Source: an uncultured Methanosarcinales archaeon (GTDB lineage: Archaea; Halobacteriota; Methanosarcinia; Methanotrichales; Methanotrichaceae). Taken from it: a stretch of 64,000 nucleotides of DNA. Location of the stretch: contig CAWJKV010000007.1 of the NCBI GenBank assembly GCA_963843555.1, positions 1 to 64,000 on the forward strand. Reading direction: 5' to 3'. Shown one piece after another: positions 24,001-30,000 of the stretch. Made by a program: the position numbers. Positions within the stretch are counted from its first letter, which is position 1. Each line of letters opens with the position of its first letter.

Positions 24001-27000
24001 TAAGGCGATGGAAGGAGTAGTCAGGCTCATTGTCCATAATGGAAAAGTGCTCATGGAAGGCATCTTTGGCGATTCCATGGAAGTGGAGGGAAAGCTTGCC
24101 GAAGTGGATATCATGGCCCAGTCAGCCAATATCATAATCGCCTAAAGAGGATAACAAGTGCTCTGGCTCCTAAATTGGGTGCCAGAAAAAAAGCAAAGAA
24201 TATCCTGGAAGCGATCAATTGCAGATAGGTACGGAATGGATAGAGCAAGTGATCTGATATTTTATTTGAAATATCGCAATAAACCTTCTTATTGATATCG
24301 GAATTCGAAGCTCGCCCTCGAATTCTACGATCCGCATTAAACGCCTTCAATCGATGGCTAAATTGGTAATGAACAGTTATTATATAATTTTATTTTAATT
24401 AATTTTTTGTCGTAGAGCTATAGAACTACATTTATTGGACTGTTAATAACTTATAAAGTTAATTTAAATTGTTTAGAAACATATAAATATCATCGAAAGA
24501 TACTACCTATTAGTCGAGTCTTGTCATGGGGTTCGGAAAACATGATGAATGATATGATTAGGCAATGTTGGGGATCTGAAAATCATTCAGGGTACTATGC
24601 CAACAACAAAAATGGGCTTTAACTCGGCACGTATTCTGCTCGCCGAGAATAATGAATCAAACCGGAAGGTAACCTCGCTAATGCTCAAACGTCTGGGCTA
24701 TCATGCAGACGCAGTTACCAATGGCAAAGAGGTCCTGCTGGCCTTGAAACACCAGCCTTATGATATAATTTTGATGAACTTAAGGATGCCGGAGGTAGAC
24801 GGATTCGAAGCTACCAGGATGATTCGCGAATGCTGTCCTGAAACCGCCCAGCCCACGATAATAGCCTTTACAGCCTATATCCTTCCCAATAGCAAAGAGA
24901 GATGCCTTGAAGCTGGTATGAATGATTTCATGGCAAAGCCGGTGAAGATGGATGATCTGGCTGCGATGCTGAGCAAGCACGCAAGAATTTTGGAGTTTCA
25001 AGCTGAGTTTACACAATTTCAAGAGGAGGCGTTTTGTAACCGTGGCCCATTCCCGAAGAATGGACAGCCGATCTTTCCATTCGATCAAGACCATTCCCTA
25101 AAAAATTAAAAAGGCAAATGTCGAAGATCATCTTCGGCTCACAAAGCTTATGAACTTTAAATGAGATAAACCCCTTTATGCGATCGAAAAATGTAATTTG
25201 CATATTATTCATATCCTTGCTTATGGCATTCAGCACGGTTTGCCTGGCAGAGGATAGTGCCAGCCCAGCGACTGCGAACCTGACCATCCCCAAAGATGGG
25301 CTGCCAGAGGACTTCAAGCTCCTCGCTGTTCTCCCTGAGATGGACCCTCAAGTGAACATGACCACTTACATCGAAGAATTCTACGGTGACTTGGATATCG
25401 GGCCTGCCAATGCTTCCGTGGGAATATACCAGTGGGGCGAACCAGGGAAGTCCTATGATGCCAAGATCACCCTGATCCGACTTTTGGATGAAGAGCATGC
25501 CAAAGCTGCCATCTCCAACTTCAAATCCCAGGAGACATACAAGAGTCAGCTGGCAAGAGGTCTGCCGATCTTCGGCAATGCTTCCGTCAATGGTCATGAG
25601 GCATTAGAAGTAAAGGATATCAGAGGAGATAACAGCATAAGATATCTCTACCTCTGGAATGCTGGAAGCACTGTGGCATTCGTTGAGGGCAACGGGGATA
25701 TGAATCAGAGCCGGATGCTGGCCAATGCCACCGGGCTCTGAATCTCAAACTTTTCAAGTTTTTTCGTACCGGAGCCCGAGGCCATTCTCGTTCCAGTCGT
25801 AAACGGGATGGCTTATGCGCCTGTGTCCCGAAGCCTGCAGGGCCTGCACCACAATCGGCACGGTGATGGTAGCATCAGAGAAGACCTGCACTTTGCTTGC
25901 CTCCTTCTTCACCTTGCCCCAGGAGACCGCCTCCTCGAAGGTGCAGCCGGACAGGCCGCCCCAGTGCGGAGCGTCTGTGGTATACTGAAGAGCATAACTG
26001 TGGCCTCCGGAGTAGTTGCCTATGAGCTCGGCAATGACCTCTGTCTGCTGGATGAAGTTCTTCGGCACTCCGCCACCGATGTAGATCACTCCCGTCTTGG
26101 CGGACTTCTCAACCATTCTTGTGATCTCATCCACGTCCTTGATCTGGTCGATCATAACGCTGGTGCCTTCGCGCAAAGCCAGGACCATGCCTATGCCCCA
26201 GGAGCTGTCTCCCAGAGCTGGCACGAAGATGGGGACTCCTGCTTTATGGGCTGCCCCCAAGATGGTGGTATCCGGCAGCCCTTTGCCCACCAGGTGCATC
26301 AGCTCGCGTGAAGAATAGCGGCGGTTCGGGTCGAGTTTCTTAACAAAATTGGAGATGTAGTTGTCAGCTTTATGCAGCTCGACCTCAGACACAAAGACGT
26401 CATAGATCCGATCGATCTTGCATTCATTGAGATAGGCGTCGTCGGCACATGCGCTTCCTCGGTAGTGGATTATGCCGAGGCCCTCGCATAGGTCGTGAAA
26501 GAGATTAGCTCCCGTGCTCACCAGGCAATCCACCTTTCTCTCACGCAGGAGGTAGGCGATGAACTCGCCCAGGCCCGCAGGCACCATCGCGCCTGCCAGG
26601 CCGAGGAAGATCGTTACATCCTCATCCAACATGCGCTCCCAGATTCGTAGGGATGCGCCGAGCTGACCTCCCTGAAAGCCCATCTTGCCCATATCCCTTA
26701 CGAGATCGGCTACACCACGGTCCTTCACAGGTATCGTAGTCCTTATCTTTTCACCATTACAAACAAAATCATGACCGAGACCGTGATCCATTTTACCCCT
26801 CCGGAGCTGTTCTCAAATAGTTCATCCTGGAAATGTTTAAAGGTTATCCCATCAGGCTAAAGGACTTCATCATGAAGCTTTATATACGAAAAAGGTCTCT
26901 AAAGCAAAGTTCGATATGATCAGCCTTGCTCAGGAGATGTGGTTGATCGTATGTTCGTTGTAAGCGGATTTTTATTAAGCATCGAGGAAAAAGCGATGAA

Positions 27001-30000
27001 GACGGATTCGGGGCTGGGGAGCAGGGAACAATTGGGGAAGGCTGAGAATCATGTGGAAGGCTGAAGATTCTATCGAGCTCTATGGAATAGAGAATTGGGG
27101 CAACGGCTATTTTTCAGTTAATGATAAAGGCAATATTATTATATTACCTAATAAGGATCGCGCTCAGTCTGTGGATATTATGGATCTCATCGAAGAGATC
27201 GAAAAATCAAAGGATCTGGAATTTCCCGTGCTATTGCGATTTCCTCAGATGCTGGACGATCGGATCAATGAGATAACTGGATCCTTTTTAAAATCCATTG
27301 AAGAATTCTCCTACAAAGGCACTTATCAGCCCATCTTTCCCATGAAGGTCAACCAGAGAAAAGAGGTTATCGAATACATCATCAAATACGGCGCCAAACA
27401 CAAGATCGGCCTTGAGGTAGGAACGAAAGCAGAGCTACTGGCAGCACTCTCTTTGGGTCTGCCTAAAGAGGCGCCCCTCATCTGTAACGGCTACAAAGAT
27501 GAGGACTATCTGCGACTGGCCCTGAGCATCCATAATATAAATAACATAATTATTGTAGTAGACCTGTTTGAGGAGATCTTCGATATCCTGAAGTATGCAG
27601 ATATCATGGGCATCGTTCCCCGCATCGGTATGAGAGTGAAGCTCTTTGCCCGCGGCTCCGGCCGATGGGTGGAATCAGGAGGTGAATCTGCCAAGTTCGG
27701 CCTTTCCACCAGCGAGGCTCTTGAACTGATGAAAATGCTGCAGGAGAGAGGTATCACTGACAGCCTGAAGATGATTCACTTTCACATCGGCTCGCAGATC
27801 ACTGATATCAGGACCATCAAGAACGCCATGAATGAAGCGGCCAGAATCTATGCCAAGGCGCGCAAGATGGCCAATATCGAGTACCTCAACGTGGGTGGCG
27901 GCCTTTCCGTGGACTATAACGGCTCCAACACTGCCACGCCCTCCAGCGCCAACTATTCCCTCCGCGAATATGCCAACGACGTGGTCTACACCGTGCAGAA
28001 GATCTGCGAGGACGAAGATGTGCCCTGCCCCACCATAGTATCCGAGAGCGGAAGGGCTATTGCCGCCTATCACAGTATGCTGATCTTCAAGATCATAGGC
28101 AAAAAGAATGCCAAGGACTCAAGGCTGCGAACGCCCATAGAGGAGGATCCCATCCAGATCGACGATCTATGCAGCGCTTTCAAGGAGATAAACATCGACA
28201 ATTACAAAGAGCACTATCACGATGCTCTGCAGTACAGGGATGAGCTGTACGATTCCTTCAACCTGGGAAATATCGGCCTGGAGGAGCGGGCCAAGGGCGA
28301 GACGCTCTTCTGGATGGTCTGCAAGAAGGCAGCTATTCTGGCCAAGCAGGCAGAGGATGACTCGGACGAGTTCCTGGAGCTGAAGAAACTGGTAAGCCAG
28401 AAGTATATCGGCAACTTCTCTCTCTTCCAGTCCGTCCCGGATATGTGGGGCGTGGAGCAGATCTTTCCCACCATCCCTCTGCACCGCCTGAATGAAATGC
28501 CCAGCGAGCGCGGCCGGATTGTGGACATCACCTGCGACTCGGACGGGGAGATTAAGAGGTATGCAGGCGAAAGCGAGGGTCTGGAATACCTGGAGATGCA
28601 CACTCTAATGGAGAATGAGGACTATTACCTGGGCATCTTTCTCCTGGGGGCATACCAGGATACTCTGGGAGACTTCCATAACCTGCTCGGATGCGCTCAT
28701 GAGGTGCATGTCATGGCCGAGGGCGATGACTGGTATATCTGTCAGAAGGTGGAGGGTGACACCTGCAAAAAGCTACTGGACTTCTTCAATTATGAGACCA
28801 AGGACTACATCTGGGAGATCATGGACCGCTGCGTGACGAAGAAGGAGTGCATCCACAAGAAAGAGCTCGAGGTGATAGAGGCAGAGCTCAACAGGACTCT
28901 GAAGGGTTACACCTACTTCATCACCAAACCCAATGGATCAGGCAGGAGCAAGGAGAATGACAAGGCCTGCAGCATCCTGAAATATTGAGAATTGAGATTG
29001 GCTCTCCAAGACGGGATTTCGGGCCTAAATAGACGAGAGATCACAGCCAATAATTTTAACTTCCAGGACGGCTCCAGAGAGGCCTGATGCATTCGACGGC
29101 CAAGAGAGATAGTCCTATTCTGGCGCTGCCGGGGTTCTTAGCAAGCGCTTTTGCGATAATCATAGGATGCCTGGCCCTTCTGACCTCTATTCCTTCCCTG
29201 GGTCGCCAGACGGAGTACGGTTATCTGCTCTCCCCCGCAGCAGGTGGTTTTCTCTTCATTCTGCTGGGGCTGGCGGGTGCCCTTGGTGCGAGTCTGTATC
29301 TGGAGAGCCGGAGGGCCACAAGGGTGTTGGCGGCTTTTGCTATCCTTCTGGCCTTGCCAGGCCTTCTTGCAATGGCTGTCTTCAGGGAATGGGCGGCCTG
29401 TCTCCTGCTGATAATAATTGCGGCCGCAACTCTTTATGCAGCAAAAACAGATAGAAGCGCTTTCCTGTTGCTCTTTGCCGGATTTGCGGGGTTTCCAATC
29501 GGCCAATGGGCGATAATCACTTTGCCTTATGGATGGAAGACCTGGGTTATCCCGGGAGTTCTTTTTGTCTTCGCAGGTCTCCTCATTGCCGGTCGAGGAG
29601 ATTTGTTGCGCCTGCCATTTCTAAACGACAAGAGCGGCAACGCCAGTCTGGCGAGTCGCTTTCTCTATACCCTGCTCGGCCTGGTCCTGATAATCCTCTC
29701 CACGGCAGCGCTCATCCACATTCCTGCAGACACGGGTCGGGGATTGGCAGGTACGGCTGGTACTCTTGCCCCCGGGCAGGCAAACGAAGCCGCCAATTCC
29801 TGGAATCCAAACGGTATGGAGGAGGCGGAGGAGGCGGTGCTGCTGAATAATTGCGATTGTGAAAATGTGTCTCTCGCAAACACAAGCTCCAAACCCTTCG
29901 AACAGAGCTGCCAGGAGGACGTTCTGAGAGCAAAGATCATCTCTCCAGAAGACGTGCAAACCTTCCCGCGAGGGGAAACTGTCTTCTTCCGGGCACTGGC

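Follow-up and report, generated by a model that had tools for sequence, protein, structure and literature searches.

A second deoxyhypusine-synthase (DHS) paralog, DHS2, encoded beside a bacterial-type arginine decarboxylase (SpeA) in an uncultured, acetate-using methanogen of the family Methanotrichaceae, probably couples two agmatines, after which a fused AguB-AguA or SpeB would release homospermidine. The window analysed is a stretch of 64,000 nucleotides (contig CAWJKV010000007.1, positions 1 to 64,000); genera (g) and families (f) are numbered by our own labels. In the pathway that we propose from sequence and gene neighbourhoods, SpeA would decarboxylate arginine to agmatine, an activity that follows from its family assignment, and agmatine would feed both TiaS (agmatidine on tRNA-Ile2) and DHS2. 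Through the NAD+ chemistry of DHS, with an imine on K293 and agmatine as donor and acceptor, DHS2 would form N1,N9-bis(guanidino)homospermidine (G44G), a reaction modelled on Thermus CdmS and bacterial SpeY. The guanidino groups would then be removed by the fused AguB-AguA or, where present, by agmatinase.

Results

The genome-wide survey's note had described DHS2 and speA as head-to-head genes, and the reading frames bear this out (Table 1). A TATA-type motif such as the one between them occurs in 24 of 27 paired DHS2-speA loci against 1.4 expected from shuffles; a sigma-70 promoter and terminator scan, a model unsuited to archaea, gave matches at chance level only. The 187-aa protein on the other side of DHS2 is a conserved neighbour; in g16, where DHS2 is missing between the two, its gene is the immediate upstream neighbour of speA.

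Table 1 Features at the DHS2-speA locus (positions within the window)
Feature	Position	Strand	Description
187-aa protein	25178-25741	plus	Hydrophobic N-terminus, no Pfam match; converges on DHS2
DHS2 (PF01916, 345 aa)	25754-26791	minus	DHS paralog, PRK00805; predicted agmatine-coupling synthase
TATA-like box TTTATATA	26879-26886		Inside the 259-bp DHS2-speA intergenic region (26792-27050)
SpeA (645 aa)	27051-28988	plus	Alanine-racemase-fold PLP arginine decarboxylase with helical bundle; predicted agmatine source

SpeA was rightly called a biosynthetic arginine decarboxylase of bacterial type: it carries PF02784 and the helical-bundle domain PF17810, exceeds the TIGR01273 (speA) cut-off (680.5 versus 624.1) and matches 3N2O with an E value of 1e-134. 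PMKVNQ (from residue 97) and TCDSDG (from residue 494), which we take to be the PLP lysine and catalytic cysteine motifs, are present, and nothing in third-position G+C suggests that speA was transferred recently. In the family SpeA largely replaces pyruvoyl ADC, and it is already explained by the need of TiaS for agmatine; according to passages of PMC8503589, most archaea cannot do without ADC, which they need to make agmatidine. TiaS was identified in this genome by NF040849, TIGR03280 being the wrong model, and its gene is split in this assembly.

Our family sample comprised 105 genomes of the order, all of one family, with SpeA in 98, DHS2 in 90 and both in 90. The two genes are divergent and at most 1 kb apart in 71 of these 90, so they are indeed recurrent neighbours; in the other 19 they lie 1-3 kb apart (2), on separate contigs (15) or distant on one contig (2). 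They are unlinked in genera g2 (3/3) and g14 (7/7), and in g16 DHS2 is cleanly missing from the speA locus. SpeA thus persists without DHS2 in g16, as it does beyond the family but in the same class in f3 (SpeA in 39/39); f4 has SpeA in 8/8. The claim that this arrangement is the bacterial layout was not borne out: in none of 46 bacterial loci is a PLP SpeA the neighbour of DHS, and the clusters there run in one direction and contain pyruvoyl ADC or SpeD-like genes.

DHS2 orthologs adjoin three unrelated decarboxylase folds. They follow pyruvoyl ADC at 17 of 20 g19/g23 loci, four f7 loci and one f35 locus, and SpeA in tandem in 4/6 f4 genomes, and one relative, P0127, carries a SpeD-like domain as a fusion. 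In the bacterial sister clade an ADC candidate lies within 1.5 kb at 34/46 loci and is accompanied by agmatinase at 30/46, the cluster components having been checked on two loci; members of this clade, being bacterial, are not known to have aIF5A. Outside the family, 29 of 38 loci of the phylum, Methanomicrobiales included, have neither ADC nor aIF5A nearby. In Methanomicrobiales DHS2 stands beside the S13-S4-S11-rpoD operon, without a decarboxylase neighbour, and in one genome (G216) it is divergent, head-to-head, to aIF5A. Of 401 genomes sampled from the phylum, 148 have a PRK00805 protein over cut-off, annotated as ordinary DHS, and all 66 genomes chosen from the phylum with DHS2 over cut-off hold a further DS copy. 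DHS2 is never the sole DS copy in near-complete genomes, and some complete genomes keep one other DS but no DHS2; in five family genomes that are incomplete (66-84%), DHS2 is the one copy seen.

DHS2 passes NCBIfam PRK00805 (487.5 versus a cut-off of 434 bits), which NCBIfam names deoxyhypusine synthase, and falls below the cut-off of the SpeY family PRK02492 (261.3 versus 500 bits), which Thermus and Caulobacter control proteins pass. The description of DHS2 as SpeY-like is kept in part: linkage and tree favour agmatine coupling, and the SpeY family cut-off is missed. In a careful tree of 60 rows, DHS2 falls in an 11-row PRK00805 ortholog clade (96/93) that groups with the bacterial sister clade (96/96) and then with PRK02492 (98/95), and this side is set apart from DHS1 and the His288-type DHS (100/98). 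By the AU test, a topology that unites archaeal DHS2 and DHS1 is not rejected (p=0.115). A single-sequence AlphaFold model (pLDDT 35) was set aside, and our literature search found no assay of any PRK00805 protein.

DHS2 keeps K293, E287 and W291 (human K329, E323 and W327), and N245, I200 and L280 replace human H288, D243 and D316; the canonical polyamine-site pair His288/Asp243 is thus absent, with N and L in its place in DHS1. We rejected D243, D316 and H288 as discriminating residues, because the CdmS-type changes and the loss of H288 are common to DHS1 and solved archaeal DHS of the spermidine type also have L at 316. Mapped by spacing and PRK02492 conservation, E136 and D143 would occupy the positions of the acidic pair for the second agmatine of CdmS, and A68 stands where CdmS has the guanidino-binding Ser67; A68 and Q249 are S and D in PRK02492. 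D143 is found in 26/27 archaeal DHS2, 8/9 PRK02492-like and 11/11 PRK00770-like rows, with E in 20/20 DHS1 rows and in 13/46 bacterial rows.

The other paralog lies elsewhere, as the survey had noted: DHS1 (C7:73316-74263, minus strand) is 40% identical to DHS2 and adjoins a respiratory-complex operon, not aIF5A. The latter is on C4, where a motif scan found it after being missed by the Pfam eIF-5a search. DHS1 belongs to PRK02301 and lacks H288, and its orthologs stand in the order aIF5A-speB-dhs at 4 of 20 loci fetched. In our reading, DHS1 would be the housekeeping copy that modifies aIF5A, and it must use a donor other than spermidine. Its assigned role in aIF5A modification thus gains from the operons of its orthologs, but it is not of the spermidine type, since His288 is gone and a spermidine source is lacking. 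PMC13625781 (2026, SpeY) closes by asking whether archaea have both agmatine- and spermidine-dependent DHS. The proposal of such a pair in this archaeon is contradicted by the DHS1 pattern and by a family without a spermidine route, so the question is left unanswered here; an Archaeoglobus-like genome fits better, for example G204, which has pyruvoyl ADC-DHS2 together with a PRK01221 copy that carries H288.

AguA was found in 74/105 and the arginase family in 76/105 family genomes. At least one is present in all 64 genomes that are at least 90% complete, so the claim that every genome has a guanidino hydrolase holds for near-complete genomes, and two incomplete ones (G040, G078) have neither. 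The fusion of AguB and AguA is confirmed in relatives (62 of 67 full-profile AguA matches lie in frames of at least 600 aa) but not as one frame here, where C7:199380-201363 has a one-base frame shift near 200833. This is likely an assembly indel, given that a contig about 92% alike is one base shorter across the site and that TiaS is also split; no sequencing run containing half of the AguB-AguA words was found. The fusion scores below both the aguA and aguB cut-offs, and the hydrolase genes are unlinked to the DHS2-speA locus. Arginase-family genes are absent from 18/64 near-complete genomes, each of which has DHS2 and AguA, and in all four near-complete genomes that have no DHS2, AguA is absent and agmatinase present. 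The family's common agmatinase follows aIF5A and hence may serve aIF5A instead of G44G.

An HSS query matched none of 70 family genomes, and the PF16653 protein of this genome, a candidate HSS or CASDH, was rejected as it is closest to PH1688. PF01564 occurs in only 3/105 family genomes, which upholds the reported lack of canonical spermidine synthase; the frames of about 820 aa described for it apply to two (821 and 827 aa), the third having 390 aa. SpeD was found in 0/5 and CASDC over cut-off in 0/5 family genomes tested. In f3, HSS is present in 30/39 and DHS2 in 0/39 genomes, whereas the two co-occur in 33 f2 genomes (28/42 in g19), contrary to the exclusivity reported for bacteria. We therefore rejected strict exclusivity, which holds between families f1, f4 and f3 and fails in f2. 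M. mazei and M. barkeri contain homospermidine and no spermidine, and in Methanosarcina species putrescine is about 3 to 5 times homospermidine (PMC5178350 Table S1). Given the co-occurrence in f2, Methanosarcina homospermidine is no proof of DHS2 activity. Our literature search yielded no analysis of Methanothrix polyamines; passages of a paper on homospermidine mention Methanosaeta only as the prey of a bacterium and in the title of a reference.

Discussion

An agmatine-coupling DHS2 beside an aIF5A-modifying DHS1 would account for the repeated linkage to non-homologous decarboxylases, the ADC-DHS-speB clusters of the bacterial sister clade, the aIF5A operons of DHS1 orthologs and the finding that every near-complete genome with DHS2 has another copy as well. 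DHS2 would then be an old, vertically inherited and dispensable archaeal paralog with exchanged decarboxylase partners: SpeA in this family and f4, but pyruvoyl ADC in genomes resembling Methanosarcina and Archaeoglobus.

It is unlikely that DHS2 makes homospermidine from putrescine or an agmatine/putrescine mix, after agmatine has first been processed by AguA/AguB or SpeB. The putrescine excess of Methanosarcina, the low scores of the AguB-AguA fusion and A68 in place of the CdmS serine would suit such a route, but all seven bacterial SpeY tested gave G44G and depended on SpeB to yield homospermidine (PMC13625781), agmatine is the only substrate used by CdmS (PMC10981699), and the genes of the bacterial relatives lie in clusters with candidate arginine-type decarboxylases and speB. 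We also give little credence to a DHS2 that acts on aIF5A, either redundantly or in a complex with DHS1 as its partner, and takes agmatine made by the linked SpeA as donor: its sister clade is bacterial and sits within polyamine clusters, it is absent from g16 and from complete genomes keeping one other DS, and it is the DHS1 orthologs, in contrast, that occupy the aIF5A operon. The NCBIfam name and the neighbours in G216 and Methanomicrobiales speak for this role, as do the heterotetramers of DHS paralogs in trypanosomatids cited in a passage of PMC7780104, and the AU result is compatible with it. That the pairing is inherited synteny, with SpeA kept for TiaS and aIF5A and DHS2 serving a different role, seems very improbable, because lineages far apart show the linkage again, with three decarboxylase folds that are unrelated to one another and in one case as a fusion. 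Nevertheless, the lineages with SpeA alone (g16, f3) or unlinked (g2, g14), the non-independence of the family genomes and the essentiality of ADC are in line with it.

Building on agmatine coupling, we tentatively suggest a relay, possible though doubtful, in the Methanotrichaceae without spermidine or agmatinase (18/64), in which DHS2 and AguB-AguA would supply homospermidine as the aminobutyl donor of DHS1 for aIF5A. The agmatine-dependent branch native to archaea would then be PRK00805, from which the bacterial ADC-DHS-speB clusters would have arisen. The gene pattern of the relay also fits a DHS1 that takes putrescine directly as donor, or an AguB-AguA whose substrate is modified aIF5A.

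The chemistry is already known, so a pathway is extended here, not newly revealed. Agmatine coupling has so far been shown only with bacterial enzymes, and PRK00805 is a specific, widespread family that is a candidate for the archaeal agmatine-dependent branch. If true, methanogens that have no HSS could reach homospermidine in this way. The case also brings into focus an unsolved problem, the modification of the essential factor aIF5A in archaea without spermidine.

Comparison with known systems

DHS2 shares with SpeY and CdmS the DHS fold family, both catalytic residues (Lys and Glu), the hydrophobic replacement of human D243 and D316 (also seen in DHS1), a putative acidic pair matched to E136/D143 by spacing, ADC and guanidino hydrolase partners (SpeA adjacent in 71/90; hydrolase in 64/64 near-complete genomes, unlinked) and a family without HSS. 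It differs in that it belongs to PRK00805, is 38-41% identical to the two PRK02492 members compared, and is archaeal and vertically inherited, in a divergent pair with the hydrolase elsewhere and a coexisting aIF5A-type DHS; its activity is predicted. The speDA-speY clusters of MGII and DPANN archaea, as described in passages of PMC10407285, likewise combine an archaeal ADC with a DHS homolog, in one case with a fused deiminase/amidohydrolase (aguA-aguB), but their ADC is SpeD-derived and their hydrolase in the cluster, whereas here a PLP SpeA is found in a methanogen family and the hydrolase is unlinked. Haloferax volcanii (PMC5178350) also lacks spermidine and has a PRK02301 DHS1 without H288, an agmatinase after aIF5A and two DHS copies, the second of which has been proposed for homospermidine. 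However, that pHV3 copy is a PRK03971 protein with H288, outside the DHS2 clade. The Haloferax agmatinase model cannot apply to the 18 near-complete family genomes without an arginase-family gene; the four without DHS2 and AguA are as expected if they use a Haloferax-type route. DHS2, which is above the PRK00805 cut-off, is of the same family as the 'Probable deoxyhypusine synthase 2' of Methanosarcina (the model also matches in M. acetivorans) and is 53% identical to the G469 copy. Unlike DHS2 here, the Methanosarcina copy follows pyruvoyl ADC, not SpeA, often co-occurs with HSS and is annotated as DHS.

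Results

Pairing of DHS2, a 345-aa deoxyhypusine synthase (DHS) paralog, with the PLP arginine decarboxylase SpeA is real and conserved. The two genes stand head-to-head, as the genome-wide survey's note had described, 259 bp apart, and the named homologs sharing 86–88% identity come from Methanothrix. The 105 genomes of the order belong to a single family and are therefore kin whose counts are not independent events; SpeA occurs in 98 of them and DHS2 in 90, and every DHS2-bearing genome has SpeA too. Within these 90 the genes are divergent at ≤1 kb in 71 and at 1–3 kb in 2, on one contig but apart in 2 and on different contigs in 15; genera g2 and g14 have them unlinked. 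A TATA-type motif is present in the gap at 24 of 27 paired loci, taken among the 30 best-scoring SpeA loci, versus 1.4 expected. Genus g16 is missing DHS2, and a 187-aa neighbour gene directly adjoins speA; its SpeA (loci L313–L315) is shorter by ~50 aa, with an identity of only 53%. Elsewhere in the window (16525–23850), translations give an ordinary archaeal L15e-RNase P-proteasome alpha-exosome-L37ae-prefoldin run.

Coordinates of the DHS2–SpeA pair and of the second DHS paralog
Feature	Position	Strand	Family	Remark
DHS2	window 25754–26791	minus	PRK00805 (NCBIfam)	DS-family gene
SpeA	window 27051–28988	plus	TIGR01273 speA (NCBIfam)	645 aa
DHS1	C7:73316–74263		PRK02301	paralog, 40% identical to DHS2

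With NCBIfam models, DHS2 is a PRK00805 member (487.5 bits, cut-off 434) and stays under the SpeY-family cut-offs of PRK02492 (261/500 bits) and PRK00770 (255/450 bits). The catalytic lysine is kept in both DHS1 and DHS2, and human H288, D243 and D316 are missing in both. Passages of PMC10981699 name D243 and D316 as differences in CdmS, the agmatine-coupling Thermus enzyme, but solved archaeal DHS also has Leu at 316, so these changes are weak markers. DHS2 and PRK02492 are set apart from DHS1 by D143 and a small residue at 201, where the DHS1 rows have E143 (20 of 20) and Q or H. The scan pattern selected positions 67, 68, 245 and 249 in the bacterial rows, and these are given no weight.

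An unrooted tree of 60 rows, picked out of 135 rows and 12 named loci, splits DHS1 and His288-type DHS from PRK00770, PRK02492 and PRK00805 (100/98), groups PRK02492 with PRK00805 (98/95) and unites archaeal DHS2 and the bacterial cluster clade (96/96). Its SpeY side uses members of PRK02492, whose cut-off Thermus passes, as stand-ins for assayed SpeY. An AU test did not reject a constraint placing archaeal DHS2 with DHS1 (p 0.115). Inteins occur in two PRK00770-type homologs (P0241, P0256); one of these also has an HNH domain.

The family's agmatine comes mainly from SpeA, because pyruvoyl arginine decarboxylase (ADC) occurs in only 18 of 105 genomes, just one of them strong. Weak PvlArgDC matches at L127–L131 (17 family genomes) are ~245-aa proteins; the one examined opens with a hydrophobic, signal-like stretch, which sets it apart from cytoplasmic pyruvoyl ADC. 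The fused guanidino hydrolase AguB-AguA, noted earlier as a single frame, occupies two frames in the source assembly through a one-base shift near C7:200833. This is likely an assembly error, given that a related contig crossing the site is one base shorter, relatives' full AguA matches lie in frames of at least 600 aa in 62 of 67 cases, and TiaS, the agmatidine-making enzyme, is likewise split. Further genes of this assembly (G000) seem split over two frames (C3:28938–30192, C4:25960–28582, C7:123619–124816, C7:196137–198951 and window 29087–31076); with TiaS they comprise ArgJ-, ArgH-, Mer- and Lhr-like genes, by translation, and the ORF downstream of speA, and point to frequent indel errors.

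The source genome is 82% complete; we found no arginase-family gene in it, and its aIF5A, on C4, is not followed by an agmatinase. At all four examined loci of the family's widespread agmatinase type, the gene follows aIF5A, an arrangement shared with the Haloferax cluster. The other 16 agmatinase-family loci (L103–L118; 16 family genomes) are a second type, with PRK02190 over cut-off and away from aIF5A. Of 20 loci retrieved around other DHS copies, 4 have DHS1 orthologs in the order aIF5A-agmatinase-dhs. Among 80 phylum genomes, hand-chosen out of a sample of 401, a further DHS copy accompanies PRK00805 in all 66 genomes with that model over cut-off, and 12 have one copy only, of a family other than PRK00805; DHS2 is the only copy seen in five incomplete family genomes.

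Linkage to a decarboxylase varies beyond the family. Pyruvoyl ADC precedes DHS2 orthologs in 17 of 20 g19/g23 loci (g19 being Methanosarcina-like), an order repeated in records titled Methanosarcina and Archaeoglobales; in family f4, 4 of 6 genomes have SpeA and DHS2 in tandem, in that order, and one relative carries a fused SpeD-like domain. Against such a partnership, neither ADC nor aIF5A is near DHS2 at 29 of the 38 loci from the phylum that fall outside the family; in Methanomicrobiales, DHS2 is flanked by CBS genes on one side and the S13 operon on the other, and in genome G216 aIF5A is divergent to DHS2. At one f4 locus (L190, G332:C22:28323–32207) a 310-aa protein with TiaS TCKD/FLD domains comes after speA and DHS2 in the same direction, and at L168 and L170 (Archaeoglobus-like f7) pyruvoyl ADC, DHS2 and an AF_2299-like CDP-alcohol phosphotransferase look like a single operon.

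Discussion

Gene families, linkage and motifs make a three-step chain fairly likely. SpeA would convert arginine to agmatine, DHS2 would couple agmatine into N1,N9-bis(guanidino)homospermidine via an NAD+-dependent imine on K293, and AguB-AguA or agmatinase (SpeB) would remove the guanidino groups to leave homospermidine. The survey's prediction of an agmatine-coupling SpeY survives in part: DHS2 is probably the archaeal branch of an agmatine-to-homospermidine pathway and probably works in a SpeY-like mode, yet it scores below both SpeY cut-offs and lies outside the defined family.

Other roles and routes bear on this reading. Agmatidine requires agmatine, so SpeA would be needed anyway (passages of PMC8503589). 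Spermidine routes are sparse, with PF01564 in 3 of 105 family genomes and neither SpeD nor CASDC in the five tested. A query for homospermidine synthase (HSS) matched 0 of 70 family genomes. Across the 251 class genomes of that query, DHS2 is present in 65 of 69 f1 relatives and in 6 of 8 f4 genomes, f4 having no HSS; f3 carries HSS in 30 of 39 and DHS2 in none, but against exclusivity DHS2 accompanies HSS in 33 of 39 HSS-bearing genomes of Methanosarcina-like f2. Genome G299 (f3; locus L217) has HSS, SpeA and a PRK00770-like second DHS in place of PRK00805. Homospermidine in Methanosarcinales, as stated in the survey, is confirmed for M. mazei and M. barkeri, with putrescine and no spermidine (Table S1 in PMC5178350); HSS can account for it there.

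The 64 near-complete genomes fall into four groups: DHS2 and AguA without an arginase-family gene (18), all three (27), DHS2 with agmatinase only (15), and neither DHS2 nor AguA (4). In the 18 of the first group, DHS1 can draw on no spermidine and on no agmatinase such as the Haloferax model calls for; the remaining options are homospermidine, putrescine, or an action of AguB-AguA on modified aIF5A. Human DHS is said, in work by Park from 2003, to interconvert deoxyhypusine and homospermidine.

We found no paper assigning the methanogen PRK00805 copy a function, although subscription papers and the Michael reviews may treat it; the idea of a second archaeal DHS as homospermidine maker is already relayed in PMC5178350. 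The copy proposed for this is presumably the Haloferax volcanii pHV3 DHS; that plasmid protein (L165) is a PRK03971 member with His288, outside the SpeY-like side of our tree. The enzymes assayed in PMC13625781 include none from archaea. By its gene content, G204, the only f7 genome whose second DHS copy was classified, would better meet the pairing asked about there, with pyruvoyl ADC-DHS2 and a PRK01221 copy with H288. A named-genome scan with an alignment of 13 relatives gave at least 572 matches, and 46 of the 80 best are bacterial loci. Among these 46, neither ADC nor agmatinase is found at 11 (7 Acidobacteriota), an ADC candidate lies within 1.5 kb at 34, and ADC and agmatinase are both present at 30; such ADC-DHS-agmatinase loci are the cluster type whose assays are described in PMC13625781.
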